NCBI GenBank assembly: GCA_964651015.1
Contig: CAZYYS010000001.1
Location: 1 to 54,724 of the forward strand
Direction: 5' to 3'
Origin: an uncultured Verrucomicrobiota bacterium
GTDB taxonomy: Bacteria > Verrucomicrobiota > Verrucomicrobiia > Limisphaerales > PALSA-1396
Length of the DNA stretch: 54,724 nucleotides
Below are positions 2,279-49,245 of the stretch, in pieces. Numbering within the stretch: the stretch's first letter is position 1; each line of letters starts with the position of its first letter. The position numbers and the translations under genes were made by a program. The notes beneath the pieces were generated by a model that made no database searches, had not been told where the DNA came from, and worked only from the letters and a program-made list of their open reading frames with translations.

Positions 2279-5200
2279 TCATGCCCGCAACCGAAGCAAC
2301 AAGTCTTTTATTTCGACTGATTCGCCGACTTGGACGCAGATTTCATCCACCAGACCATCCGCAGACGAATAGAGGGTCGTCTGCATTTTCATCGCCTCCA
2401 TCATCATCAGTTTATCGCCTTTGGCAACCTTGGTTCCGACACTCACGGCGATCGCCGTGACAATCCCTGGAATCGGCGCACCTGTTTGCAAGGGATCAGT
2501 CGAGTCGGCTTTGGGTCGGCTTTTGGTTTTAGGTTGCACCGAACGGTCGAGCACCGTCGCCTCGCGCGGCATACCATTTAATTCAAAGTTGATCGTCCTC
2601 TGGCCGTCGTTATCCACTGGCCCCACGTTGATCAACTTGACGAACAGCGTTTTCCCCTCCTCGATATTTACGGAAATTTCGTCGCCCGGCTTCAGGCCAT
2701 AAAAAAACGCCGAAGTTGGCAGGACGGATACGTTGCCGTAATCACGGGAAAATTTGGCAAACGTCTCATGCACGTCCGGATACATGAGGTGGCTGTAAAG
2801 ATCATCATCGGTGATCTCGCGTTTGAAGCGCAGGGAAAGATCAGCTTTGGCTTTCTTAAAATTCAACGGGCGCAGTTGCGAACCAGGCCGCCCACGAATC
2901 GGTTTCCTCTTTCCAAGGACGACGCGTTGTAACTTTTTTGGCCAGCCACCCAGGGGTTGTCCCAATCCGCCGGAAATCATATCGATCACGGATTCCGGAA
3001 AGGGCGTTGCGCCCGGTTCCAGGTTGAGCACATCCGACGGCTTGATGCCGCGCGAGATGAGAAACATGGTCATATCACCGACCACCTTGCTGCTGGGCGT
3101 GACTTTGACGATGTCGCCAAAGAGTTGGTTGACTTCGGCGTAGCACCTCGCAATCTCCGGCCAACGATGGCCCAAGCCCATGCTGGCCGCCTGTTCTTTG
3201 AGGTTTGTGTATTGGCCGCCGGGCATTTCGTGATCATACACTTCCGCGCTACCACTGGCCGGCGAGGTGTCGAACGGCGCATACAACGTGCGCACTTGCT
3301 CCCAATAGTCGGCACATTCGTTGAGCGCGACCAGATCCAGACCGGTGTCGCGCGGCGTATGCTTCAACGCGGCCACAACCGAGTTCAAATTTGGCTGGCT
3401 CGTTGATCCTGACATGGAGGCGATCGCCAAATCCACCACGTCCACACCGGCATCGCTGGCACGTAGAACGGAAGCTGAATTGACGCCGCTGCTGTCGTGA
3501 GTGTGGAAATGAATGGGAAGTCCGATCTCCTCGCGTAAAGCCTTCACCAGATTGAAGGCCGCATACGGACGGCACAGCCCCGCCATATCCTTGATTGCCA
3601 GGAAGTGGGCACCCATTTTTTCCAGCTCGCGCGCCAGCTTGACGTAATACCGGAGAGAGTATTTGGAGCGCCTGCGATCCAGGATGTCGCCGGTGTAGCA
3701 GATGGCCGCCTCGCAGATTGCGTGCGTCTTTTGCACCGCCTCCATCGCCACTTTGAGATTCGGCAGGTAATTCAGCGAGTCGAAGATGCGAAAAATATCA
3801 ATCCCCTGCTCCGCCGCGTGTCTGACGAACCCCGCGACGACGTTGTCAGGGTAATTGGAGTACCCCACCGCGTTAGCGCCGCGAAACAGCATTTGAAAGC
3901 AAATATTCGGAACCCGCTCCCGCAACTGGCGCAAACGTCGCCAAGGGTCTTCACGCAAAAAACGCATCGCAGTGTCGAAGGTCGCCCCACCCCACAGTTC
4001 CAGACTGAACAGTTGTGGAGTTCGGCGTGCGACGGCGTCGGCGACAGCCAGCATGTCGTAGGTTCGCACTCTGGTGGCCAGCAACGATTGGTGCGCGTCC
4101 CGAAAAGTGGTGTCAGTTACTAGCAATCGCTTTTGTCTTAGTGTCCAGCGCGCAAATTTCTCCGGCCCTAGCTCCAGCAGTAGCTGTCTCGTTCCTTTGG
4201 GGGGAATTTGTTTGTGATCGTACGTTGGCGCAACCACCATGGCGCGCGGCATCTTTTGAGTGCGACTCTTCACCTGAGGATTTCCGTTGACAATCACATC
4301 GGCCAGGAACGCCAGCAGCCGCGTGGCGCGGTCCCGTCGCGGTTTGAAAGCAAACAGTTCCGGAGTGGTGTCAATCAGCGTGGTGGTGGCGCCGCCGGAT
4401 CGGAAGGTTTCATTTTCGATGACGTTTTCCAAAAATGGGATGTTGGTTTTCACACCCCGGATGCGGAATTCGCGCAGTGACCGATCCATGCGCTGGAGCG
4501 CCAGGGAAAAAGTTCTCCCCGACGCGGTGATCTTCACCAGTAAAGAATCATAAAAGGGCGTGATGACACTGCCGGCGTCACCCATGCCGCCATCGAGCCG
4601 AACCCCAAAACCTGCCGCCGAGCGATAGGTGAGAATCTTGCCATAGTCCGGCATGAATTTGTTTTCCGGATCCTCGGTGGTCACGCGGCACTGGACCGCA
4701 TAGCCCATGCGAGGGATCTCATTCTGCGGCGGTAAATCCAGTTCAGCTCCATGCAACCGGTGGCCCTGCGCCACAAGAATCTGCGAGCGAACCAAGTCGA
4801 TGCCCGTAATTACTTCAGTGACGGTGTGCTCAACCTGAATGCGCGGGTTCATCTCGATGAAGAACCATTCCTTGCGATCAATGTCATACAGGAATTCAAC
4901 TGTCCCTGCATTATCGTAATTCACCTCCGCCGCCATGCGCGCGGCGGCTTCACATAATTCGGCCCTAATCTTCTCGTCCAACCCGACCGACGGCGCTATT
5001 TCAACCACCTTTTGATGGCGGCGTTGAACGGAGCAATCGCGTTCGTGCAAATGGAGAACGTTGCCATGCTGGTCGCCCAGCACCTGAACCTCGATATGCT
5101 TGGCTCGGGGAATATATTTCTCCAAAAAAACAGCAGCGTTGCCAAAAGCGCGCTCCGCTTCGTTGCGGGCCTCGTCCAGCAGATTGGCCAGCTCCGATTG

Positions 5201-36910: not shown

Positions 36911-39082
36911 TCAATACGGCAAGGGAAATCTTGCGGTCAACTCACGAACACGTTTATGCACCTTTTGCGCGGCGTCAAGGTTCTTTATGTCCAACAAGAC
37001 TTCGCAGATCATGTCGGCAATGGCCGCCATCTCCGGCTCTTTCATACCCCTGGTCGTGGCGGCGGGCGTTCCCAACCGGATGCCACTGGCTTGGAAAGGC
37101 GAACGCGTTTCAAAGGGAATTGTGTTTTTGTTCACCGTAATACCGGCGGCATCGAGTGCGATCTGGCAATCCTTTCCCGTCACCCCTCGCGCGCCAACAT
37201 CAACCAGCATCAAGTGGTTGTCCGTGCCCCCGCTGACCAGCCGGTAGTTGTTCCGGCTCATGCCTTCAGCCAGCGCCCTGGCGTTGTTAACAACTTGCTG
37301 CTGATAGGCCTTGAAACCTGGTTGCATCGCCTCACGCAAACAGACTGCCTTGGCGGCTATCACGTGCATCAACGGCCCGCCTTGAATTCCCGGAAACGCC
37401 TGTGAGTCGATTTCCTTGGCATACTTCTCCTTGCACAAAATCAGACCTCCGCGAGGCCCGCGCAACGTCTTATGGGTGGTCGTGGTCACGAAATCTGCGT
37501 GCTCGATCGGGCTGGGATGCAGGCCGGCAGCCACCAACCCGGCAATGTGCGCGATATCCGCCAGCAGCAGCGCGCCAACTTCCCGCGAAATTTCGCCCAT
37601 CCTGGCAAAGTCAATGACGCGCGGATAGGCGCTGGCGCCCACGGTGATCATCTTGGGCCGATGTTTCCGCGCCATCTCCGCAAGTTGGTCATAGTCAATT
37701 CGTTCATCGTCTTTGCGCACGCCATAGTGAATGATTTCAAAGAATTTCCCGGAGAAATTGGCTTTGTTGCCGTGCGTCAAATGCCCGCCGTGACTCAAGT
37801 CCATGGTGAGCATTTTGTCGCCCGGCTTCAAAAAGGCGAAATAGACCGCCATGTTCGCACCGCTCCCGGAATGCGGCAGGACATTGGCGTGTTCTGCGCC
37901 GAATAACGCCTTTGCCCGGTCGATGGCAAGTTGCTCTACCACATCGACATACTCACAACCACCGTACCAGCGCTTTTTCGGATAACCCTCCGCATACTTG
38001 TTGGTAAGCACCGAACCTTGCGCTTCCATCACCGCCGGGCTGGTGAAGTTTTCGCTGGCAATCAATTCAATGTTTTCCTGCTGCCGCCGGCATTCGCGCT
38101 CGATGGCATCAGCAATTTCAGGATCGACAGTTCTTAATTTTAGTTCAGGGGAAGTGTTCATGGGTTCCAGTTTTCGGACGCGCCGTTCGTGGCGACCGCC
38201 ATCAAAACGCACATTCAGAAAGACATCCACTATTTTTTTTGCAAGCTCCGGAGGCGTGGTCCTGGCTCCAAGGCAAAGGACATTGGCATTGTTATGCTGG
38301 CGCGCCGCCGCCGCCATCTGTTCATCAAACACCAGCGCCGCGCGGATGCCGGGCACCTTGTTGGCGGCGATACTCATTCCGACGCCGGTCGTGCATATCA
38401 ACAACCCCATTTCTGCCTCACGAGCCGCTACGGCCCGCGCAACCGCCTGAGCGTAGTCAGGATAATCGGTGGAGACGGGGGAATTAGTACCCAGGTCGTT
38501 CACGGCCAAACCGCTTGCTGCCAGGTGCTGCTTGAGTGCTTCTTTCAACTCGTAACCACCGTGGTCAGCCCCGAGGACGATGGCGATTTTCTTATTGCCG
38601 GAAGGTTCAACCGGCACGGGACCCGGGCTTTGATCCAGGAATCTCAGCAAGGAAGCAATGCCTTGTTCAATCTGATCGCGGCAATTCACATAAACTCTGT
38701 AGGAACCGCCGATAGGATCGCTGATGTCTTTTTCAAAATCGTTCAGCGTTTCATCAAACTCGCGTAGCAGAAAAGTCTTTTCTGCGGCGGGCGGATACAA
38801 CAGACAGATGGTTTCGACGTGACTGTGAGTCATGCCGAAAATGTAATCCGCCTGCTGCACCAGTTCTGGCGTAAGCATCCGGCTTTGCTGCCGGGAGATA
38901 TCGATGCCCAATTCTTCCACCGCCTCCACCGCATACCGGCTCGGCGGTTGGCCGTTCATCGCACCCAACCCAGCCGACAGCACTCTGAAGTTGCCCCTCG
39001 ACTTGACCGCGTGGCGAAAAATGCCCTCGGCCATGGGACTGCGACAAACATTCCCCGTGCAAACGAAAAGTACGGTCTTCAT
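36911..39082 (-). CDS. glyA: Tri-domain fusion: LMW protein phosphatase + ribose-5-phosphate isomerase B + serine hydroxymethyltransferase
   Basis: Residues 1-150 carry CTGNVCRS (CX5R P-loop) and the DP motif. Residues 164-305 are RpiB ([34 protein letters not shown]). Residues 308-723 are SHMT (ELIASENF, and the PLP lysine in [14 protein letters not shown]). It is one uninterrupted frame. Confidence 0.9.
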
Positions 39083-39138
39083 TACTGCGTCAGGTTAGTC
39101 AAGTTGGGGCGCGTGAAGAAAATCGTCAACGGCGAAAA

Positions 39139-40221
39139 TCAGCGCGAACGAAATTCGCGGACAATTACCAGTCCTTTCAACAAATCCAGCGCCCGCGCCA
39201 AGGCCGGATCGCGAACCATTGGCTTCTCCGGTTCTACCCTTCTCGCGGTCAGCAAGGCGGTCTCCGGATCCCGGTTAAGTTCCTCCCTTCTTTCACGAAC
39301 CAAATCGGCCTCCGTGAGCCGACGGCGTCCAGGCCGGGTTGGTTCGCCTGCCGCGCTATTCGTCGAAGAAGTAGCACTGGCCAGCAAGTTGGTGGGCTTG
39401 GACAACACCTTGTAGGCATCCCCAAAATAGACCTTCTCATCCGCCGCGCTCACCGCCACTTGAATATCAGGTTTGACTCCTTCCACGGACAATTCTGTTC
39501 CATTTCCCAACTTGATTTCCGAAGTCGCTATTCGCAACCGTTGCCCGTTCTGTAACGGATATTCCCGCCCCAAAGTTGCCCGACCTGCGGTATTATTCCC
39601 GATCACCAGGCCCACGCCCGTCGCGCGCAGCAGAGCAGCCAGCGCCTCCGCGGCCACGCTGGTTTGTTGATTGACCAAGACTGCCAGCGGCGACTTGATC
39701 GCATCGGTCTTGGTCTTCGATTCAACCATGCCGTTCCCCCAATCAAGCAGAGGTTGCGAGCCCGCCAAAAACAAGTCGGCGGCCGCTGCGGCTGCCGAAT
39801 AACTATCACCCCCCGCAAACCGCAAATCCAAAATCAATCCCTTCAATCTATTTGTAACACTAAGTGCATCGTAGGCCGTTGAGATTTCCTTCGCCAGCCC
39901 CTCACCCACCCGCTCCACACGCAAGTAAGCAAACCCGCCATCAAAGACTCGCGATTGACTCAATAGCCCCTCTGAGCTTTCCGTTTTTGTCGCCAATTCA
40001 TTGGTCACCAACACGACACGGGGATATAACTTCGCCAGCAAGCCCTGCACCGCCGCTTGATCAAGCTCTGCAGTGCTGACACCTTCAAGATGAGCACGAA
40101 TCAAATCATAGACTTCTTTGAAATCCGGCGCTTCGTTGGTTGTCGCCGCTGCGCGTGCAGCCGACACGCAAAGCGCAAACGCCAGCATTACCGCAATCAA
40201 ACGAAAACTCAGTCGTGTCAT
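39139..40221 (-). CDS. Secreted S41 (C-terminal processing peptidase)-like protein, possibly non-catalytic
   Basis: A signal peptide follows ATG 40221. S41-like blocks are present (GLILDLRFAGGDS, LAVLVNQQTSVAAEALAALL, GNNTAGRA). Confidence 0.6.
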   Translation of the reverse strand: MTRLSFRLIAVMLAFALCVSAARAAATTNEAPDFKEVYDLIRAHLEGVSTAELDQAAVQGLLAKLYPRVVLVTNELATKTESSEGLLSQSRVFDGGFAYLRVERVGEGLAKEISTAYDALSVTNRLKGLILDLRFAGGDSYSAAAAAADLFLAGSQPLLDWGNGMVESKTKTDAIKSPLAVLVNQQTSVAAEALAALLRATGVGLVIGNNTAGRATLGREYPLQNGQRLRIATSEIKLGNGTELSVEGVKPDIQVAVSAADEKVYFGDAYKVLSKPTNLLASATSSTNSAAGEPTRPGRRRLTEADLVRERREELNRDPETALLTARRVEPEKPMVRDPALARALDLLKGLVIVREFRSR

Positions 40222-40336
40222 GTCGGCGCTAAAATGCGCGAGAACGGCAGGAATGTAAAGGAGCGACCGTCTCTTCCCAGTTTGCGCACCAATCTGTCTT
40301 CCATCGCAATCGTGGTTCACTTAGATTCCATTCACA

Positions 40337-41077
40337 ATGCGTGTTGAAATCTGTGTGGATTCGATGGAAAGCGCGCGGGCCGCCCAGCGCGGCGGAGCGG
40401 ACCGCGTGGAACTTTGCGATAACCTATTAGAAGGTGGCACCACCCCCAGCGCCGGATGCATCAAGTTGGCACGACGTTGCCTCAAGATCGGCCTACAAGT
40501 CATCATTCGACCCCGCGGAAGCGATTTTCTCTACAACGATGACGAGATGGAAGTCATGCGCGAAGATATTCGTATCGCCAAGGACCTCGGCGCAGATGGT
40601 GTTGTTACCGGATGTTTGACGGAAGAGGGCAACATCGACCGCCAGCGCACCAGCGAACTAATCAAACTGGCGCGGCCTCTCAACGTCACGTTCCATCGCG
40701 CGTTTGACATGTGCCGCGATCCCCGGCAAGGATTGGAGGATTTGATCGCCTTGGGCGTGGATCGCGTGCTGACGTCAGGTCAGGAAGCGTCGTGTTTGGA
40801 GGGACTCGGCCTCATCGCAGCGTTACAGAAACAAGCCGCGGGTCGCATTATCGTCATGCCCGGCGGCGGCATTACGCCCCAGAACGTGCGCCAAATCGTG
40901 GACGGCACAGGTGTCACCGAAGTTCACCTAAGCGCGCGCACACCTGTGGAAAGCAAGATGCGTTATCGCAATCCGCGCTGTTTCATGGGCAACGCCACGC
41001 GGGATGCCGAATTCACGCGAAAGGTCACTGACGAAACCATCGTGCGACGGATCGTGGAAAGCCTGCGCGAGAAATAG
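40337..41077 (+). CDS. cutC: Copper homeostasis protein CutC family
   Basis: The N-terminus is MRVEICVDSMESARAAQRGGADRVELC. HRAFD and a TIM-barrel-like pattern typical of CutC are present. Confidence 0.88.
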   Translation: MRVEICVDSMESARAAQRGGADRVELCDNLLEGGTTPSAGCIKLARRCLKIGLQVIIRPRGSDFLYNDDEMEVMREDIRIAKDLGADGVVTGCLTEEGNIDRQRTSELIKLARPLNVTFHRAFDMCRDPRQGLEDLIALGVDRVLTSGQEASCLEGLGLIAALQKQAAGRIIVMPGGGITPQNVRQIVDGTGVTEVHLSARTPVESKMRYRNPRCFMGNATRDAEFTRKVTDETIVRRIVESLREK

Positions 41078-41134
41078 CACAGCACCCGGGCACAGGGTTA
41101 AATTCTTTGTCGGATTCCTTGACCCGGCGGCGAT

Positions 41135-43399
41135 ATGCTTCTGACAATGAGCACGACTTCGACTGACAACGACCTGCAGTTGCTCGCCCGTTACTCACGC
41201 AGCCGCGCCGAGGACGCTTTTGCCGAAATCGTTCGGCGCTATCTGAGTCTCGTCTATTCCGCCGCACTCCGGCAGGTTCGCTCTCCTCAACTCGCTGAGG
41301 AAGTCGCCCAATCCGTTTTCACGGACCTCGCCGGAAACGCTGCCCGGCTCAAGCCCAATACTATCCTCACCGCCTGGCTTTACCAAGTGACCCACCGGAC
41401 TGCCGTCGATGTCGTCCGCCGCGAAGCTCGCCGTCAGTTGCGCGAACAAATCGCCACCGAAATGAACACCATGAATGCCACCGCTGCGGACTGGACGCAC
41501 ATCGAACCGCTTCTCGACGAGGCCATGCACGCCCTCGATGAAACCGACCGCACCGCCGTCCTGCTCCGTTACTTCGAGAATAAGAGTCTCCGTGAAGTTG
41601 GGGCAACGCTCGGCACATCCGATGACGCTGCACAAAAGCGCGTCAGCCGCGCTGTCGAGCGCCTCCGGGAATTCTTCGCCAAAAGCGGCGTCACCGTCGG
41701 CGCGAGCGGACTCGTCGTCCTCATCTCCGCCAACGCCGTGCAAGCGACCGCAGCGGGTCTGGTCGTCACCATTTCTGCCGCGGCACTGGCTGGAACTGCC
41801 GTCACCAATTCAACCGTCGTCGCCACCACAACCAAAACCATTGTCATGACCATGTCTCAAAAACTCCTCACTACCACCGCAATCCTCGCGCTTCTCGCGA
41901 CGGCTTTGATCACCTTCAACCGCGGACGCGACAAGCAGCCGCCGCAGGCCGCCGATTCCGCTGTCACGCCCGCAATCAGCGGAGAAAGGCAAACAGCGAT
42001 TCCCAAAAAACGTTTCTTCCAGCGTGCTCTTGGAACGGCTTCGGCCGATTCGCCAGAGCGGCTGACGACGGCACTTCAAGAATTGCACTCGGCGTTATAC
42101 CGGCCCGCCCCGGCGCGCGGTGTCCGCATGTATCCGCCGGAAGAGGTGATCGCCGCGCTGCGCGGGCTGGGCGCGGATCGCAAGGAAGCGTTCGCGATGC
42201 TACGGGAGGCTTTGAGCGATCCCGATCTCGAGGTTCGCCAGCGAGCGGTTGCGGCCCTCGGTTTCATCGGCATGCCGGCCCGGCCAGAAGACGGCATTAC
42301 AGGCGAGCCGTCCACGGAGGCGGGCCCGCTGTTGTGGCAGGTTCTGCGCGAGCAACCGGAACTTGCGAGCACAGCCCTCAGCGCGCTCGGCAACCTCGGG
42401 TTCAGCGCCGAGGAAATTCCCGCGCTCACGGATCTGCTGGGCGAAACGACCGACCAGATTCTCAGGCGTTATCTGCCCGTGGCCATCGCCGACACGTTGC
42501 GGAAGCATCCCGAAGCTGCCGGGCCGTTTCTCTCCAAGGTAACGAAGTTGCTCGACGGCCCCGATGGGGATTTGGGCTTCGCCGCAGCGTGCGCACTGGC
42601 GCCGCGATTCGCAACAGAGAATCCTGATCTCGTGGACCGGCTCGTCGCCGGACTGAAGAACCCTTCGCAGGAGTTGATGGCCGTGGAAACATTGCGGGCA
42701 TTGGGAACAGCGGCAACGCCGGCCCTCTCCGACCTCGTCGCGTTTGCCAATTCAACCACGAACGACGTCCTGCGACAGATCGCCTTGAAAACCATCGGCA
42801 AACTCAACGCTGAATTTCGCAATGTTTCGCCGGAAGTGGATCAGGCGTTGCGCGGCGAAGAGCGCACGACCCACTGGAATCAAAAGTTCGCGAGCGGCAA
42901 CTTGAACTACGATGAACTGCTCGCCGCGCTGAGGGAGCCGAACTTTGCGGCTTTGTCGGCGAAGCGTCTCGGCGAAATGGGAGCTGCCGCCCGGGAATCC
43001 GTGCCAAGCCTGCTTGCTGCGCTGGCGGGGCAGGACCAGAAAAACCGCGACCAGATCGTGGAAGCGATTCGTCGGATTGACCCGGACACGACGTTCGCCA
43101 AAGTGGAGGGAAAAAGCGTCTGGTCGGCGGCGATGATGGCGACGCTCACGCTCGAATCCCGCCCGGAAAACCAGCGCCCGCCCGCTGTCACCAGGTTGCT
43201 CGACCAACTCTCGATGGCGAAGTCCGACTGGTACACGCAGCAGGAGATACTGGCAGTGGGAACGCAGCTCGCCGCTCAGGACCAGGGCGTTTACCGTTCC
43301 TTCGCGGAAAAACTTGCCGAAGCCGATCCGGCGCTCGCCAAACTGTTTGCCCCCGATGGCACACGTGCACCAGTTGCCGGCCCGTCCACTTCGCCGTGA
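41135..43399 (+). CDS. ECF sigma factor fused via hydrophobic/TM segments to a C-terminal HEAT-repeat domain (754 aa)
   Basis: Sigma region 2 is present (YLSLVYSAALRQV...EEVAQSVF, WLYQVTHRTAVD). Region 4 is present (DRTAVLLRYFENKSLREVGATLGTSDDAAQKRVSRAVERLR). The linker SANAVQATAAGLVVTISAAALAGT and a TM segment follow. The C-terminal part is HEAT-like repeats (DPDLEVRQRAVAALG). Confidence 0.85.
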   Translation: MLLTMSTTSTDNDLQLLARYSRSRAEDAFAEIVRRYLSLVYSAALRQVRSPQLAEEVAQSVFTDLAGNAARLKPNTILTAWLYQVTHRTAVDVVRREARRQLREQIATEMNTMNATAADWTHIEPLLDEAMHALDETDRTAVLLRYFENKSLREVGATLGTSDDAAQKRVSRAVERLREFFAKSGVTVGASGLVVLISANAVQATAAGLVVTISAAALAGTAVTNSTVVATTTKTIVMTMSQKLLTTTAILALLATALITFNRGRDKQPPQAADSAVTPAISGERQTAIPKKRFFQRALGTASADSPERLTTALQELHSALYRPAPARGVRMYPPEEVIAALRGLGADRKEAFAMLREALSDPDLEVRQRAVAALGFIGMPARPEDGITGEPSTEAGPLLWQVLREQPELASTALSALGNLGFSAEEIPALTDLLGETTDQILRRYLPVAIADTLRKHPEAAGPFLSKVTKLLDGPDGDLGFAAACALAPRFATENPDLVDRLVAGLKNPSQELMAVETLRALGTAATPALSDLVAFANSTTNDVLRQIALKTIGKLNAEFRNVSPEVDQALRGEERTTHWNQKFASGNLNYDELLAALREPNFAALSAKRLGEMGAAARESVPSLLAALAGQDQKNRDQIVEAIRRIDPDTTFAKVEGKSVWSAAMMATLTLESRPENQRPPAVTRLLDQLSMAKSDWYTQQEILAVGTQLAAQDQGVYRSFAEKLAEADPALAKLFAPDGTRAPVAGPSTSP

Positions 43400-43494
43400 C
43401 GTTCGGGCTGCTGCCCGCGGATCACGGCGATTTCCCCGCGCGCTGGCATTCTTCAAGGCGCTGAACGAACTCTTTCGGAATACGACGCTCACGC

Positions 43495-43669
43495 GCGGTC
43501 TATTTCGTCACATTTCGGCTTGCTGCCGAACCACGTTCATACCTTCGTTTGGCCGATGGCTGGTCACACGGTGGCTTATGTGGAGAACAACCCGATAAAA
43601 GCCGGGTTCTGTAAACGCCCGAAAGACTGGAAGCGGAACGTCGCGAGCGAACGACAACAACCGTCGTAG
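43495..43669 (+). pseudogene. Decayed RAYT / IS200-like (HUH, Y1) transposase remnant
   Basis: One frame reads AVYFVTFRL. After a frame change the next reads LLPNHVH (HUH motif), joined directly to AYVENNPIKAGFCKRPKDW (the family C-terminal block) and a stop at 43667. The internal regions are missing. Confidence 0.5.
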
Positions 43670-43837
43670 CAGCGGGCGTCCTCGCCTGCCGTAGAGCCAG
43701 GGCGTCCCGCCCGGCGGAAAATAACCTCACGCAAGCTCAACAGACTCCATTCTTTCGCAAGCCGCATAAAACTCACACGACAAATCCGGGGGCGAGACGC
43801 CCACCCCCTCTGCGGCAGGCAAGATGCCCGACGCTAC
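43666..43837. repeat. REP-like GC-rich unit (~52 nt) in an inverted pair around a ~68-nt spacer
   Basis: The unit at 43666-43717 (gtagcagcgggcgtcctcgcctgccgtagagccagggcgtcccgccc...) matches the reverse complement of 43786-43837 (...gggcgagacgcccaccccctctgcggcaggcaagatgcccgacgctac). Identity is roughly 80 percent by eye. Confidence 0.55.
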
Positions 43838-43918
43838 ATTCGCCACTTGATTAGTCCGGGAAAGACCATTTTTTTTGTTCGGTTTACCTCTTCAGCGGGT
43901 CTTTATTGATGATTGAAC

Positions 43919-45577
43919 ATGACGGACAGCCAGCACTTGCTCGCCGAATATGCCCGAAGCGGATCAGACGCGACTTTTCGGGAATTGGTCACGCGCTACA
44001 TTGATTTGGTCCATTCCACAGCGGTCCGATTAGTCGCGGGCGACGCACATCTCGCTGAAGACATCGCCCAGACCGTATTCTCCGATCTGGCTCGCTTGGC
44101 ACAAACGCTTCCTGCGGATGTCATGCTCGGCGGCTGGCTGCATCGGCACACTTGTTTTGTGGCCGCGAAAACGATGCGGAGCGAACGCCGTCGGCAATCG
44201 CGTGAAAGGCAGGCTGTGGAAATGAATGCGTTGCAAAATGACTCCGGCGCGGATTTTTCCCGCGTGGCGCCGATGCTCGACGAAGCCATCAATGAACTCG
44301 GCGATGCGGATCGCACGGCCATCCTGCTCCGTTTCTTCGAGCAACGCGACTTTCGATCGGTAGGTCTGATTCTCGGCAGCAACGAAGATGCAGCCCGGAT
44401 GCGGGTAAGCCGGGCTTTGGAGAAATTGGAATCCTCGCTGAAACGACGTGGACTCACGACCAGTTCCGCCGCCCTTTCCGTTGTGCTCGCCGCCAATGCC
44501 GTCCAAGCCGCACCTGTCGGACTCGCCGTCACGATTTCAACCGCCGCCACTCTTGCCGGAACAACCATCGCCACCACTGCAACCGCAACCACCATCAAAA
44601 CCATTGCCATGACCTCACTCCAAAAGACTCTCATCGGCGCCACAATCGTCGCTGCCCTCGGGACAGGGATATATGAAGCAAGGCTGGCCTCGATCTACCG
44701 ACAAGAAGGCCATTACATCAGGGAGCAACAGATGTCGCTTATGCACCAATTACACCAAGCCACGCGTGAGCGAGACGACGCAACTAACAAACTGTCGCTC
44801 TCTCAATCAGAAATCGGGATGCTGCGCCAGAATTCGGCTGAACTTCCCCGATTGCGCGGAGAAGTTGCACGGATGAAATCCACTCACGCAGCCGCAGCCA
44901 ACGATCCCACACTTGAAGCCGCCGATAAATCCTGGACGGCCCGCGCGAGCAAGCTCAAGCAACGTTTGGAACAAATGCCGGACAAGAACATTCCCGAACT
45001 CCAGTTTCTCACCGACAAGGATTGGTTTGACGCCGTTAAGAACGCCAAACAACTCGAAACAGATGCCGATTTTCGTCAGGCCTTAAACAATCTGCGCAAT
45101 AGCGCGAAAAATACTTTTGGCGACATGACGAGAGAGGCCTTGAAAAAATATGCCGAAGCGAATAGTGGCCTGTTGCCCGGAGACTGGTCGCAACTGAAAC
45201 GTTTTTTCGAAACACCGGTGGACGATGCCATACTCGAACGCTATTCACTTATCCAAACTGGAAAGTTAGCTGATGTGCCGCGGACAGAATTCCTGTTCGT
45301 GGAGAAAGCTCCCCCCGTGGACGATGAATATGACTCGTTCCACGAATTTAGAATGGACGGCACCAGATCCAGCAGCGTCAACGGGCCCGGAGACATTGTC
45401 TGGCAAGGCCTCATTCAATTCTCCAAAGCCCATGACGGGCTACTGCCTGCCGATGCATCTCAATTGGCGCGCTATCTCAAGCGGCCGCTTGATCAAGCCA
45501 AGGTGCGAGACATCCTGAGGTCGATTCCACCTGGTATCACCACGATGGAGCAACTTAAAGCCGCCGGGCCGAAATGA
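43919..45577 (+). CDS. ECF sigma factor fused via hydrophobic/TM segments to a coiled-coil plus globular C-terminal domain (about 552 aa)
   Basis: Regions 2 and 4 are present (DRTAILLRFFEQRDFRSVGLILGSNEDAARMRVSRALEKL). The linker AALSVVLAANAVQAAPVGLAVTISTAATLAGT and a TM segment follow. A coiled coil carries ELPRLRGEVARMK. ATG 43919 is preferred over TTG 43913. Confidence 0.85.
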   Translation: MTDSQHLLAEYARSGSDATFRELVTRYIDLVHSTAVRLVAGDAHLAEDIAQTVFSDLARLAQTLPADVMLGGWLHRHTCFVAAKTMRSERRRQSRERQAVEMNALQNDSGADFSRVAPMLDEAINELGDADRTAILLRFFEQRDFRSVGLILGSNEDAARMRVSRALEKLESSLKRRGLTTSSAALSVVLAANAVQAAPVGLAVTISTAATLAGTTIATTATATTIKTIAMTSLQKTLIGATIVAALGTGIYEARLASIYRQEGHYIREQQMSLMHQLHQATRERDDATNKLSLSQSEIGMLRQNSAELPRLRGEVARMKSTHAAAANDPTLEAADKSWTARASKLKQRLEQMPDKNIPELQFLTDKDWFDAVKNAKQLETDADFRQALNNLRNSAKNTFGDMTREALKKYAEANSGLLPGDWSQLKRFFETPVDDAILERYSLIQTGKLADVPRTEFLFVEKAPPVDDEYDSFHEFRMDGTRSSSVNGPGDIVWQGLIQFSKAHDGLLPADASQLARYLKRPLDQAKVRDILRSIPPGITTMEQLKAAGPK

Positions 45578-45676
45578 TTTTTCTTTGAAGTGTTAGCTCG
45601 CCACCTTCGCCCTAGGTTGCGGTGAAACTGCACCGCCAAAAATACTTTGTCGGATTTTTCCGGGCGCGGTTATTAA

Positions 45677-47113
45677 ATGGGTGAGATGCACGAAAAGTCC
45701 GACGCCCAATTGCTCCGGGATTATGCCCAACAAGGCGACGAAGCCGCGTTCGCGGAACTCGTCAACCGACACACGAACCTCGTGTATTCAGCCGCCGCGC
45801 GACAAGTTGATTCGCCGGACCTCGCCGCCGAAGTTGCCCAAAGCGCCTTCATCGGACTGGCGCACGGCGCACGATCATTGTTGCCACGACTGACGGAGGG
45901 CGCATCGCTCGCGGGTTGGCTTTGCCGGAGCGCCCGCAACATCTCGCTCAATCTGCGGCGCGATGAATTCCGCCGACACTCCCGCGAAAGGCAGGCCATG
46001 GAACAATTCAACCCGACTTCCGAAACCGCCACCGATTGGGAACGCCTGCGTCCCCTGCTCGATGATGCCATGTCCGAACTGGACGAAACCGACTACGACG
46101 CGCTGGTGATGCGTTTTTTTAAGAATCAGCATTTGCGATCTGTCGGACTGGCTCTGGGTGTCAGCGATGATACGGCGCAAAAGCGCGTCGCGCGGGCACT
46201 CGATAAACTGCGTGAACATTTGTCCCGACGCGGCATCAACACCACTGCTGCCGCGCTTTCGGTTGTTCTCACCGCCAATGCCGTCCAAGCCGCGCCCGTC
46301 GGATTGGCCGTCACGATTTCAACCGCTGCCGCCCTTGCCGGAACATCCATTGCCAACTCAACCGCAACCGTCACGGCACTCAAACTCATGTCCCCCGTCG
46401 TTTTGAAATCTATCATTGCCGCCAGCACAGCGATTGCCGCTTCCATTCTGATTGTTATGCAACACAAGCGCGTGGATCAGTTGCGCGAACAAAACGAATC
46501 CTTAAAGGCGCAAGCCCAGAAGACGGAGACGGCGTCTGCCGAGCTTTCCGAACAACTTCAAACGTTGACCCGCGAAAGGGAAAACAACCCGCGCCAGGCA
46601 GAACTGTTTCGACTGCGTGGCGAAGCGACCCGGCTGCACGGCCTGGAAGCCGAGTTCGCCAAGTTGCGCGAAGAATTGCTTCGCCAACAAGAGCAAAGCC
46701 GAGCGACCAGTGCAGCCCAAGCCGCCACTGAGGAAGCCATTCAAAAATTTGATGCGCAACGAGCTATGACCATAAACACAATGAAGCAAGTCGGGTTGCA
46801 ATTGCGCGGATTGGCAGTCCAGAACAACCTGAATGCCGCGTTCACCGCTGACGGAAACTTAAATCCGACCCTTGTCAGCGGCCTTGATTTAAGAAATGTG
46901 GAACTACTTGTGAATGATTCCTCCCAGCTTGAAAAACTCCTCGGCGGAGCACCGGATACGATCTTGGCTCGGACTGCGGAACCTGTTCCCACGCCTGACG
47001 GGCGGTGGCTCCGTGCTTACATTCTGGCCGACGGCAGTGTGCAATGTTTCTCCACGTTGGACTCAAACCAAGCCTTCACCGGCACCTTGAATCTCAAAAG
47101 TGTGAGGCCGTAA
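45677..47113 (+). CDS. ECF sigma factor fused via hydrophobic/TM segments to a coiled-coil C-terminal domain (478 aa)
   Basis: It has the same N-terminal module as the two upstream paralogs. The linker AALSVVLTANAVQAAPVGLAVTISTAAALAGT is present. A coiled coil carries ELFRLRGEATRLH. Confidence 0.85.
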   Translation: MGEMHEKSDAQLLRDYAQQGDEAAFAELVNRHTNLVYSAAARQVDSPDLAAEVAQSAFIGLAHGARSLLPRLTEGASLAGWLCRSARNISLNLRRDEFRRHSRERQAMEQFNPTSETATDWERLRPLLDDAMSELDETDYDALVMRFFKNQHLRSVGLALGVSDDTAQKRVARALDKLREHLSRRGINTTAAALSVVLTANAVQAAPVGLAVTISTAAALAGTSIANSTATVTALKLMSPVVLKSIIAASTAIAASILIVMQHKRVDQLREQNESLKAQAQKTETASAELSEQLQTLTRERENNPRQAELFRLRGEATRLHGLEAEFAKLREELLRQQEQSRATSAAQAATEEAIQKFDAQRAMTINTMKQVGLQLRGLAVQNNLNAAFTADGNLNPTLVSGLDLRNVELLVNDSSQLEKLLGGAPDTILARTAEPVPTPDGRWLRAYILADGSVQCFSTLDSNQAFTGTLNLKSVRP

Positions 47114-47223
47114 CCTTGTATTGTTCAAAAGCATTCCGATCTGCAATGTTCCTGCCAACTTTGCGCCGTGGAGGGCTGGCGTTGAAGTATTCTGTTCCGC
47201 ACCTTGTCCGACTTCGTGCAGCC

Positions 47224-49245
47224 TCACACGTACGGACTGAACGGTCGTAGATTCCATTCATCGATCAACTCTGTTGGAATTTCGCCGAGGAAGCGGGAGG
47301 GTTGTTGCATTACAGCTCCACTGTTGCCCTGCATCGCGCGGATCAATGGATAACTGAGGTAAAGTTCATTGCGCGCCCGGGTAATGGCGACGTAGAAAAG
47401 TCTGCGTTCCTCTTCTTCACCTTCCAAGTCGTCGATTGAACGCGCCGACGGAAACAGTCCGTCACATAGCATGATGATGAAAACGACCTCGAACTCCAGC
47501 CCCTTGGCCTGGTGAATGGTGGAGAGGCGGATTTTTTCATGGTCATTGTCAGCAGGCTGATTGTCCTCGGCTTCCACGTTCGTCAACAAGGCGAGTTGCG
47601 TGAGAAAATCTTCGAGCGATTCAAACTGCCGGGCGAAACTGCCCAGTTGCTCCAAGTCCTCCAAACGATTGCGCGAATTGGCGTAGGTCTCCTTCAAATA
47701 TTCTTCGTAGCCAGCCTCGAGCACGAGCTGGATCATTTCGGCGGTTTTGCCACGGACGGGTTCGGCTTCCAGTTGCGCGACGGTCGCAACGAATTGTGCC
47801 CAGGCCACTGCGGCTTTCTTCGGAACACTTGACAAACACTGCTGCAACGCCGCGGCGAGTGGGGCGACTTTGGGCTTTGGACTTTGGACTTTGGACTCAA
47901 ACACCTTCCAAAATTTGTCCGCTCCTTTCCGGCCGATGCCCGGCAAGAGTTGCACAAGCCGCTTGAAACTCAATTCATCGCGCGGATTGGAAACCAGTTT
48001 GAGATAGGCCGCCACATCTTTGACGTGCGCCTGCTCGAAGAAACGGATGCCGCTGGTGATGCTGAACGGGATATTTCGGCGCGTTAGTTCCAGTTGCAGT
48101 TCCAACGCGTGAAAGTGGGAGCGATAAAGGACGGCCATTTGATTGGGATTTACGCCTTCCTCACGCAGTTCCAACACCCGCTGGGCGACGAAAGCTGCCT
48201 GTTCCGACGCGTCCCCGCAAACCACGAGCGCCGGCTTCGTCCCAGGTTTACGTGCGGGCGCAAGATGTTTGGCAAATTGATGGATGTTGGCCGCGATTGC
48301 CGCGTTGGCCACGTCCAGGATCTCCGGTGTGCTCCGGTAATTGGTTTCGATTTTGAAGGTCTGCGCCTTGGGATGCCGCTCCGAAAACTTCAGGATGTTC
48401 TGGAAGTTCGCGCCCCGCCACGCGTAGATACTTTGAGCGTCATCACCCACCACCATGACGTTGTGATGCCGCCCGGCGAGCAAGTCGATGAGGTCACCCT
48501 GGAGTTGATTGGTGTCCTGATATTCGTCCACGAGGACAAATTGAAACCGCCGCTGGTAATGTTGGCGCACTTCGGCGTGTTCTTGCAGGAGTTTAAGCCA
48601 GAGCGAGAGCAAATCATCAAAATCCATCGCGTTCGTGGCGCGCTTCCGCGCATCGTAACGGCGCTCCACGTCTTCGATTTGAGAAGCGAGCGAACCAAAA
48701 TACTCATACTGTTCGCCCAAGACCTGCGCCACGGGCTTACGCGTGTTGATCACCATCGAAAAAATGTCGCCCAACACCTCTGCTTTCGGAAAACGGGTGG
48801 CTTTCACATCGATTTCTGCTTCACCGACACAGGCATCGATCAAATCCTTGGCGTCCTCGCGGTCCATGATCGTGAAATCGCGCTGATAACCGACCAACTC
48901 CGCGTGTTGACGGAGGATACGATTGCCAACGGAATGAAACGTCCCACCCCAAAGCGATGGCAACTCCTGTCCCAGCAAATCCGCGACGCGTCGCATCATT
49001 TCACGGGCCGCTTTGTTGGTGAACGTTAGCAACAGAATGCGGTCGGGGGGAATCCCTTGTTCGAGCAAGAAAGCCACGCGGTAGGTCAGCGTGCGGGTTT
49101 TGCCTGAACCCGCGCCCGCGATCACCAACGCTGGACCAGGCGGCGCCGTGACTGCGGCAAGTTGTTGCGGATTCAGTTCACGGGCATAATCAATCTGAAG
49201 ATGGACCGGTGAACGAAATGGGTGCAACACATACTCACGCGACAT
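47224..49245 (-). CDS. uvrD: UvrD/PcrA/Rep-family ATP-dependent DNA helicase
   Basis: Walker A is AGAGSGKT. Motif II is VDEYQDTN. TIHQAKGLEF and the other SF1A motifs are present. ATG at 49245 (MSREYVL) is preferred. Confidence 0.92.
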   Translation of the reverse strand: MSREYVLHPFRSPVHLQIDYARELNPQQLAAVTAPPGPALVIAGAGSGKTRTLTYRVAFLLEQGIPPDRILLLTFTNKAAREMMRRVADLLGQELPSLWGGTFHSVGNRILRQHAELVGYQRDFTIMDREDAKDLIDACVGEAEIDVKATRFPKAEVLGDIFSMVINTRKPVAQVLGEQYEYFGSLASQIEDVERRYDARKRATNAMDFDDLLSLWLKLLQEHAEVRQHYQRRFQFVLVDEYQDTNQLQGDLIDLLAGRHHNVMVVGDDAQSIYAWRGANFQNILKFSERHPKAQTFKIETNYRSTPEILDVANAAIAANIHQFAKHLAPARKPGTKPALVVCGDASEQAAFVAQRVLELREEGVNPNQMAVLYRSHFHALELQLELTRRNIPFSITSGIRFFEQAHVKDVAAYLKLVSNPRDELSFKRLVQLLPGIGRKGADKFWKVFESKVQSPKPKVAPLAAALQQCLSSVPKKAAVAWAQFVATVAQLEAEPVRGKTAEMIQLVLEAGYEEYLKETYANSRNRLEDLEQLGSFARQFESLEDFLTQLALLTNVEAEDNQPADNDHEKIRLSTIHQAKGLEFEVVFIIMLCDGLFPSARSIDDLEGEEEERRLFYVAITRARNELYLSYPLIRAMQGNSGAVMQQPSRFLGEIPTELIDEWNLRPFSPYV
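47866..47897. repeat. Heptanucleotide tandem repeat (GACTTTG, about 4.5 copies) inside uvrD
   Basis: The sequence is gactttg ggctttg gactttg gactttg gact. On the coding strand it is (T/C)CCAAAG, encoding SKVQSPKPKV. Confidence 0.85.

Follow-up and report, generated by a model that had tools for sequence, protein, structure and literature searches.

How an extracytoplasmic function (ECF) sigma factor could be held back and set free when it forms a single polypeptide with its own putative sensor, and when no anti-sigma domain is recognised in it, is the question raised by three tandem genes, here called g1, g2 and g3, on contig CAZYYS010000001.1 of an uncultured Verrucomicrobiota bacterium (assembly GCA_964651015.1). 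The whole stretch analyzed, positions 1 to 54,724 of this contig, is referred to as the window. ECF sigma factors which have C-terminal, sometimes transmembrane (TM)-containing, extensions and no anti-sigma partner are a catalogued class (PMC7826278, PMC8999054), and literature searches on Verrucomicrobia ECF sigma factors with TM extensions yielded no paper describing the module family to which g1-g3 belong. Judged from sequence comparison, this family is very large, is specific to Verrucomicrobiota and consists of ECF sigma/sensor proteins made as one polypeptide. The best overall explanation of its design, which we favour with moderate confidence, is a membrane-held ECF sigma/sensor fusion that would be released by proteolysis and would transcribe from its own two-part promoter.

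The genes and their parts, with lengths in amino acids (aa) and model confidence as predicted local distance difference test (pLDDT), are the following:

41135-43399, plus strand: g1, ECF sigma/linker/anchor/HEAT-repeat protein; 754 aa as open reading frame (ORF), likely 750 aa from the ATG at 41147.
41228-41671, plus strand: g1 sigma region 2 (aa 32-100) and region 4 (aa 127-179); Pfam PF04542 (5.5e-11) and PF08281 (1.9e-10).
41705-41797, plus strand: conserved segment of g1, rich in Ala and Val, SGLVVLISANAVQATAAGLVVTISAAALAGT (aa 191-221), with 3.2-3.4 bits per position in the family.
41831-41917, plus strand: g1 TKTIVMTMSQK box and putative hydrophobic anchor LLTTTAILALLATALITF, aa 233-261; Kyte-Doolittle 1.83, summed Hessa value 0.27.
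42122-43234, plus strand: g1 HEAT-repeat region, approximate, aa ~330-700; Pfam HEAT_2 (1.9e-17) in three stretches, the best at aa 339-382.
43913-45577, plus strand: g2, ECF sigma/linker/anchor/coiled coil/unknown globular domain; 554 aa from a TTG, probably 552 aa from the ATG at 43919.
44468-44563, plus strand: g2 conserved segment AALSVVLAANAVQAAPVGLAVTISTAATLAGT, aa 186-217.
44594-44674, plus strand: g2 IKTIAMTSLQK box and short putative hydrophobic anchor TLIGATIVAALGTGIY, aa 228-254; sigma-less paralogues begin at the equivalent Met.
44666-44911, plus strand: g2 coiled coil with ELPRLRGEVAR, aa ~252-333; a long helix in AlphaFold2, with a BLASTP match to g3.
44912-45574, plus strand: g2 C-terminal globular domain, aa 334-554; AlphaFold2 pLDDT 85-97, fold/function family unassigned.
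45677-47113, plus strand: g3, ECF sigma/linker/anchor/coiled coil/small alpha/beta domain; 478 aa.
46250-46459, plus strand: g3 conserved segment (aa 192-223), LKLMSPVVLK and putative anchor SIIAASTAIAASILIVM (aa 245-261); Kyte-Doolittle 2.13.
46457-47110, plus strand: g3 coiled coil (aa 261-381, with ELFRLRGEATR) and alpha/beta domain (aa 385-478); AlphaFold2 pLDDT of the domain 88-96.

In the original prediction, made from the letters of the sequence, these genes had been read as three tandem ECF sigma fusions, and this reading holds: on the plus strand, ORFs of 754, 554 (552 from the ATG) and 478 aa alike match Sigma70_r2 and Sigma70_r4/r4_2 of Pfam, and score 74.3, 48.5 and 72.7 bits (g1, g2, g3) with TIGR02937, the ECF superfamily model with a cut-off of 42.9. 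Having regions 2 and 4 only and scoring above the family cut-off, all three are ECF sigma factors, and the solved structures nearest to the sigma core are the ECF sigma factors SigE, SigK and SigW (PDB matches). No NCBIfam subfamily cut-off was reached by any of them; TIGR02989 (Rhodopirellula/Verrucomicrobium), for example, gave 51 vs 124.6 bits. Beyond the sigma core extend some 290-570 aa, and, as had been predicted, no anti-sigma ORF was found beside the array or in the 513-bp gap between g1 and g2. Nor was there any anti-sigma Pfam family in g1-g3 at E<=0.1; with extensions of more than 50 aa and no neighbouring anti-sigma gene, the three are one-component ECF proteins. The linker strings quoted in the prediction recur exactly at aa 191-221 of g1, 186-217 of g2 and 192-223 of g3.

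The divergence of the C-termini, also predicted, was found as described. After its anchor, g1 continues with a Pro/Ala-rich stretch followed by HEAT repeats, and no similarity to g2 or g3 was detected there (BLASTP E>1), while the only similarity between g2 and g3 beyond the anchor is the coiled-coil stretch with EL.RLRGE (BLASTP E=0.002), followed by unrelated ends. For the C-terminus of g2 neither a PDB fold for the model from linker to end (Foldseek, best E 0.28) nor a Pfam or NCBIfam match was obtained; for the C-terminal domain of g3 there was no PDB sequence match (profile, E 0.56) and no NCBIfam match, and a Foldseek search of the full-length g3 model against PDB returned sigma-factor matches only and was uninformative on this domain.

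The same architecture was found far beyond the window. A profile of the three modules (269 positions, for a module of ~265 aa) detects three copies in the window, g1, g2 and g3, and no more; in an exhaustive HMMER search, it was matched at E<=1e-30 by at least 11,710 representatives of 50%-identity clusters, the best 150 of which all span profile positions ~1-266. More than 2,534 matches to g3 were returned by a word-indexed search, those with a name being called 'sigma-70 family RNA polymerase sigma factor' and assigned to Verrucomicrobia. Relatives are encoded by at least 550 stretches in species-representative genomes, and all informative record titles of these matches read Verrucomicrobiota, Limisphaerales or Verrucomicrobiia. 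In 79 fetched loci 137 family copies were counted, with same-strand arrays of two to four genes in ~35 of the 79. As the fused architecture recurs in thousands of sequences and many loci, the continuous reading frame is real and tandem arrays are a habit of the family. A frameshift or assembly error that joined separate sigma and anti-sigma/sensor genes, one of the ways in which the prediction might have failed, has a probability of practically nil: nothing was found in its favour apart from a few split or truncated gene calls among database entries, and it is refuted by a continuous frame in thousands of independent assemblies and in the 137 copies.

Ten of the family-bearing contigs (L002, L011, L017, L021, L037, L042, L051, L053, L069 and L070) are filed under unrelated bin names, namely Bifidobacterium, Bifidobacteriaceae, Nitrosopumilaceae, Baltobacteraceae and Acidiferrales. 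Some of them also carry the Verrucomicrobiota synteny of Rho and serine hydroxymethyltransferase (SHMT), and the metagenome-assembled genomes concerned are probably mis-binned or mislabelled.

Within this family the module has been joined repeatedly to different C-terminal heads, a conclusion supported by several sequence comparisons. Over ~255 aa, each window module is 72-93% identical to its nearest relatives, whose C-termini lack detectable similarity to the window protein. The g2-type C-terminal domain, the commonest in the sample (77 of 240), is borne by modules that resemble g3 more closely than g2; 31 of the 240 have the g3-type domain, with orthologues of 54-71% identity, and the HEAT C-terminus of g1 has two other sigma-fused relatives in the whole protein collection (40% and 29% identity). 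In at least 14 syntenic loci the first gene after an S41-like peptidase gene has a g1-type module, and these positional orthologues (436-865 aa) share, downstream of the module, the coiled coil alone or nothing. The predicted diversification by tandem duplication and sensor swapping is therefore upheld as to the swapping and the arrays, but the duplication was neither recent nor local: the modules of g1, g2 and g3 (aa 1-262) are 46% identical in each pair and have closer relatives in other genomes, so that a recent local duplication was rejected. By this comparison the three genes are old paralogues of an ancient duplication.

What the members have in common is a fixed layout, in which the core of sigma regions 2 and 4 is followed by an uncharged segment of ~35 aa (..SANAVQAAPxGLAxTISTAAxLAGT), a spacer, the anchor, usually a coiled coil and a variable domain. 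In 240 members aligned to the hidden Markov model of the module, the segment L-S-A-N-A-V-Q-A-A-P-x-G-L-A-x-T-I-S-T-A-A reaches 3.2-3.4 bits per position, with P in 100%, A in 98%, L in 97%, V in 95% and G in 94%, and is thereby on a level with the best parts of regions 2 and 4 in the sigma core. The spacer is rich in Thr (33%) and Ala (23%) and leads to a conserved 'TKxIAMTTLQK' box, after which the hydrophobic anchor stretch of 15-20 residues is less conserved (2.4 bits); from sigma region 4 to the anchor there are ~50 low-complexity residues. Since its conservation equals that of the sigma core and exceeds what a tether or an ordinary TM helix needs, the Ala-rich segment probably has a specific function or partner, be it the sigma core, a protease or itself, and would not be a passive tether or an ordinary TM helix. 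The 25 Pfam families found most often in 81 representatives include no anti-sigma domain.

A second shared element, which does not appear in the original prediction and is new in the present analysis, is a two-part box, which lies directly upstream of g1-g3 and of about 90% of the family's genes:

41106-41137, plus strand: box of g1, with Box 1 TTTGTCGGATT (41106-41116) and Box 2 GGCGGCGATATG (41126-41137); position weight matrix (PWM) score 25.4, Box 2 class GCGATAT specific to g1-type modules.
43874-43908, plus strand: box of g2, a variant, with Box 1 TTTGTTCGGTTT and Box 2 AGCGGGTCTTTATTG; the TGTTCGG variant accompanies 'ARMR' in sigma region 4.2.
45646-45679, plus strand: box of g3, with Box 1 TTTGTCGGATT and Box 2 GCGCGGTTATTAAATG, overlapping the start codon; PWM score 41.0.

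An identical 12-mer, CTTTGTCGGATT, lies 19-21 nt ahead of the ATGs of g1 and g3, its counterpart in g2 being TTTGTTCGGTTT. Of 126 family genes in loci from many species, 109 have the anchor motif TGTN[CG]G[AG][ATG]T at a distance of 27-48 nt (mode 38) before module position 1, the chance expectation being 0.0115 per searched interval. In its core form the box reads TGTCGGATTT-N7-GGCGG-TGTTTAAT, and the full consensus is AAAAACTT-TGTCGGATTT-N7-GGCGG-t-TGTTTAAT-gGgTGAgATG, in which G is invariant at +21 and T nearly so at +26. When both strands of 2.49 Mb were scanned with a PWM restricted to the non-coding part of the box, 124 sites were obtained, essentially all of them directly upstream of family genes, the exceptions being one threshold-level match and two sites in locus L070. 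The latter, at 5155 and 8455, are strong copies of the box, and no family N-terminus is encoded by the sequence that follows them (GGGTAGATGCTCCATCCGCCCCG...); possibly they are degraded family copies, or else the sole non-family targets seen. A simple scan for sigma-70 promoters gave nothing meaningful, and no RNA family of Rfam was found within 39000-48000.

The box bears on the gene starts as well, for it overlaps the mechanical ORF starts of g1 (ATG 41135) and g2 (TTG 43913). Because ATG 41135 falls inside the conserved box and homologues begin with MTSD.. after it, g1 probably starts at ATG 41147, and likewise the true start of g2 is probably ATG 43919. As the downstream half of the box runs into the start codon, the 5' leader would be very short or absent.

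Box and sigma factor vary together. Box 1 TGTCGGA is paired with 'AQKR' in the recognition helix of sigma region 4.2 in 77 of 79 genes, TGTGCG[AG] or TGTTCGG with 'ARMR' in 13 of 13, and each of four Box 2 classes with a distinct region-2 sequence, for instance GCGATAT with LY[AQ]VTRRTAID in the g1 type. The window itself follows this rule: g1 and g3 have the same Box 1 and AQKR, yet differ in Box 2 and region 2, and g2 differs in both. Such covariation fits the pattern predicted by self-recognition, under which the genes would be autoregulated, as is usual for ECF sigma factors (PMC7826278).

Whether the proteins are indeed held at the membrane was judged by crude scales only, Kyte-Doolittle (classical threshold 1.6) and summed Hessa values. 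The further TM segment of the original prediction is clearly hydrophobic in g1 (Kyte-Doolittle 1.83) and g3 (2.13), both above the threshold, but weak in g2 (1.45, below it), and for the Ala-rich segment the sums fit zero, one or two membrane passes. About 70 consecutive residues are uncharged except for two Lys. The recognisable fused domains of the family are mostly of extracytoplasmic types (SecDF_P1_head, CarboxypepD_reg, Secretin, PSCyt2, DUF1573), others being TPR, HEAT and AhpC/TSA. In addition, two sigma-less paralogues, P0296 (304 aa, on a 396-kb contig, L080 4001-4915) and P0291 (329 aa), start exactly at the conserved Met of 'MTTLQK', resemble type II signal anchors in this start, and consist of anchor, coiled coil and g2-type domain. 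They lie directly downstream (53 and 67 bp) of a full-length sigma-fused member and may be decoys, partners or recent deletions. On account of the nearly uncharged residues, the extracytoplasmic domain types and the paralogues starting at the anchor, a C-terminus outside the cytoplasm is favoured, so that the variable domain most likely faces the periplasm; membrane anchoring of g1-g3 is probable, with N-in/C-out as the as yet unproven topology and g1 as the least clear case.

Under the favoured explanation, release by proteolysis, the anchor, possibly aided by the Ala-rich segment, would hold the sigma factor away from RNA polymerase. A signal received at the C-terminal domain would lead to trimming of this domain and then to intramembrane cleavage of the site-2 protease type. 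Site-2 proteases such as RseP and S2P need helix-destabilising residues in their substrates, and the helix-breakers N, Q, P and G of the Ala-rich segment could plausibly make this segment the place of cleavage or recognition. Once free, the sigma core would transcribe from its own promoter (Box 1 TGTCGGATTT, Box 2 GGCGG-TGTTTAAT and variants) and from further targets, and new specificities would arise by recombination of the conserved module with new C-terminal domains. Precedents exist: proteolytic release has been proposed for ECF48/52/53 (PMC8999054), and IutY of Pseudomonas putida is released by sequential proteolysis by Prc and then RseP (PMC5411451, PMC8999054), so that the remark in the original prediction that release of a membrane-anchored sigma factor had never been established was too broad, though correct for the family of g1-g3. 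Several observations weigh against this explanation. The window contains no linked gene for an M50 or an active S41 protease, and no PWM site precedes a non-family gene within +/-10 kb, so that no regulon is visible; the covariation of box and sigma could also stem from shared descent, and the box itself would be compatible with a promoter of the ECF-like or the extended -10 type. Furthermore, the median Kyte-Doolittle value of each of the three hydrophobic zones is ~1.5 in 297 relatives, with unfavourable summed Hessa values of 3-6; sigma core, coiled coils and C-terminal domains were modelled confidently by AlphaFold2, yet the anchor has a pLDDT of ~30 and no clean helix in both models (g3 in full length, g2 from linker to end); and g1 combines positive charges just after the anchor with a HEAT domain, a type more often cytoplasmic. 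Of the predicted membrane-tethered one-component design, the fusion of sigma and extension and the missing anti-sigma factor thus stand firm, while the borderline hydrophobicity and the poorly modelled anchor leave membrane insertion with indirect support.

Among the rival explanations, a built-in anti-sigma switch is unlikely, though by no means negligible. Here the NAVQAAPxGL/TISTAA segment would form a pair of short helices that pack back against sigma regions 2 and 4, comparable to the extensions of ECF41/42 or to a class II anti-sigma domain (CnrY, NepR) in minimal form, and would be displaced without proteolysis by a conformational change transmitted through anchor and coiled coil upon binding of a ligand or partner to the sensor. 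The segment is conserved like the sigma core and above the anchor, a classical anti-sigma domain is absent, and the first helix (aa 191-200) has a pLDDT of 84 in the full-length g3 model and ~35 in the g2 fragment lacking the sigma core; this last hint is weak, as the two models differ in paralogue and alignment depth. Similarly, the modelled core superposes best on anti-sigma-bound forms (template modelling score 0.54 for SigW/RsiW and 0.57 for CnrH/CnrY, root-mean-square deviation ~8) and worse on forms bound to RNA polymerase (deviation ~25), but compact ECF conformations are often produced by AlphaFold2 anyway. A sigma factor still tethered would, moreover, have to function at the membrane, and such a switch can coexist with proteolytic release. 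Rather improbable is the alternative that the sigma factor stays at the membrane for good, in the manner of ToxR, CadC and TcpP, with the full-length protein recruiting RNA polymerase and DNA and the sensor and coiled coil governing oligomerisation. To it would suit the long, flexible Thr/Ala-rich spacer between sigma core and anchor, the coiled coil fit for dimerisation after the anchor in g2 and g3, the lack of a linked protease, and the recovery of Planctomycetes ECF sigma factors with WD40 extensions from detergent fractions (PMC8567305). However, no more than ~50 residues lead from sigma region 4 to the anchor, cleavage was required by IutY, the sole tested hybrid (PMC5411451), and the sigma factor must join the RNA polymerase holoenzyme and pass through promoter escape. 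No membrane-bound sigma factor is known to do so.

A wholly cytoplasmic protein, in which the Ala/Thr/Val-rich stretch would be a low-complexity linker and the C-termini would sense cytoplasmic ligands or partners as in the extensions of ECF41/42/57, is very improbable. Borderline hydrophobicity, low AlphaFold2 confidence over all three hydrophobic zones and the often cytoplasmic nature of HEAT and TPR domains would agree with it, but ~70 aa uncharged but for two Lys are atypical of a soluble linker, the anchors of g1 and g3 exceed the Kyte-Doolittle threshold, SecDF-P1-head, Secretin, CarboxypepD_reg, PSCyt2 and DUF1573 are extracytoplasmic types, and the sigma-less paralogues begin with Met and a hydrophobic segment. 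The family could finally be a combinatorial sensing system of a hitherto undescribed kind, an improbable and speculative extension, in which the invariant NAVQAAPxGL hairpin would serve both as minimal inhibitor and as recognition site for intramembrane cleavage, replacing the anti-sigma factor, paralogues including sigma-less decoys would pair by their coiled coils, and every sigma subtype would drive a leaderless promoter of its own, insulated in part, whose Box 1/Box 2 variants suit sigma region 4.2 and region 2. Were this true, dozens of interchangeable periplasmic sensor heads would feed a few self-amplifying sigma circuits.

If the proteolytic release model holds, thousands of single-protein sigma/sensor fusions would be a main route of transmembrane signalling in Verrucomicrobiota, which are abundant in soil, peat and freshwater. 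The family would be a library, made by nature, of exchangeable sensor heads on an almost constant sigma module, its promoter box variants, which track the sigma recognition helix, would be ready-made orthogonal sigma/promoter pairs, and it would be a test case for the holding and release of a sigma factor without any anti-sigma domain. Proteins labelled merely 'sigma-70 family RNA polymerase sigma factor' or 'hypothetical protein' gain a checkable annotation. The architecture class as such is known; it is the scale, the missing anti-sigma domain, the invariant linker and the covarying box that make the family a good experimental system rather than a surprise.

The surroundings of the array are housekeeping genes, namely Rho, a fusion of LMWPc, RpiB and SHMT, an S41-like gene, CutC and UvrD. 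The S41-family 'peptidase' (39139-40320, minus strand), divergent to and beside the sigma array in at least 14 loci, has a signal peptide and lacks a PDZ domain; compared with CtpA of Pseudomonas aeruginosa, the catalytic Ser is replaced by Val (QQTSVAAE vs GGSASAAE) and the Lys by Arg (TAGRAT vs SFGKGS), and both residues are likewise absent from 16 of 16 syntenic orthologues. The protein is probably inactive, and as a candidate for the site-1 protease it was set aside, the catalytic Ser and Lys being replaced in all orthologues; gene and array may be functionally linked or merely syntenic. Next to it, at 36911-39082 on the minus strand, one ORF of 723 aa joins a low-molecular-weight phosphatase (LMWPc), ribose-5-phosphate isomerase B (RpiB) and SHMT, a fusion kept at 74-80% identity beside Rho in 16 Verrucomicrobiota loci. 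In the gap between g1 and g2 an ORF of 49 aa (43520-43669, plus strand; MLPNHVHTFVWP...AYVENNPIKAGF...) is followed by GC-rich, repeat-like sequence; it may be a collapsed relic of a Y1/REP-associated (IS200-like) transposase, although Pfam gave no match for the fragment.

Among the known systems, IutY (ECF243) of P. putida matches the probable layout of g1-g3: one polypeptide comprises a cytoplasmic ECF sigma domain at the N-terminus, a membrane span and a periplasmic C-terminus, and a separate anti-sigma gene is missing (PMC5411451, PMC8999054). IutY, however, acts together with a TonB-dependent receptor and carries an anti-sigma/periplasmic domain of the FecR type, whereas in g1-g3 no FecR, zf-HC2/ZAS or RskA domain, the mark of the hybrids, stands between sigma core and putative anchor; it is the absence of any anti-sigma domain that sets the design apart from the known hybrids. 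The family of g1-g3 also has its unique Ala-rich segment, often a coiled coil and many alternative C-termini, and while IutY is a rare oddity in its group, the architecture here defines a family of thousands. The Actinobacterial groups ECF48, ECF52 and ECF53 (e.g. SCO4117 of Streptomyces coelicolor) share the long extension and would also share its TM helices (one or two in those groups), its extracytoplasmic domain and the predicted proteolytic activation (PMC5826349, PMC8999054), but have between sigma and TM segment a zinc-finger (ZAS-like) domain, with zf-HC2/ZAS being absent from g1-g3. ECF57 (formerly ECF01-Gob) of the Planctomycetes, a sister phylum within the Planctomycetes-Verrucomicrobia-Chlamydiae (PVC) group, resembles the family in its numerous paralogues (5.3 per genome on average), long extensions and lack of an anti-sigma gene (PMC7826278, PMC8999054, PMC8567305), and such planctomycete proteins were recovered from detergent-soluble fractions (PMC8567305). 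Its marks are WD40-like repeats and a pair of conserved Cys by which sigma regions 2 and 4 are linked. In the g1-g3 family, the 25 Pfam families found most often in the 81 representatives do not include WD40, and a single Cys position is partly conserved (52%). ECF263 has five or seven TM helices in its extension (PMC7826278), compared with at most three weakly hydrophobic segments within ~70 aa in g1-g3.

The logic would be shared with the canonical pairs RpoE-RseA (DegS/RseP) and SigW-RsiW, where an extracytoplasmic signal leads through site-1 and site-2 cleavage to a free sigma factor and where the sigma genes are autoregulated from two-part promoters of the ECF type; there, the protein cleaved is a separate anti-sigma factor, whereas here the sigma factor itself would be the substrate, with no anti-sigma domain left to degrade. 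By their descriptions ECF57, ECF263, ECF48/52/53 and IutY are thus distinct from the family of g1-g3, which may already carry an ECF group number, and what this family adds to them is the conserved segment, the coiled coils, the extensive swapping of heads and the matched promoter box.

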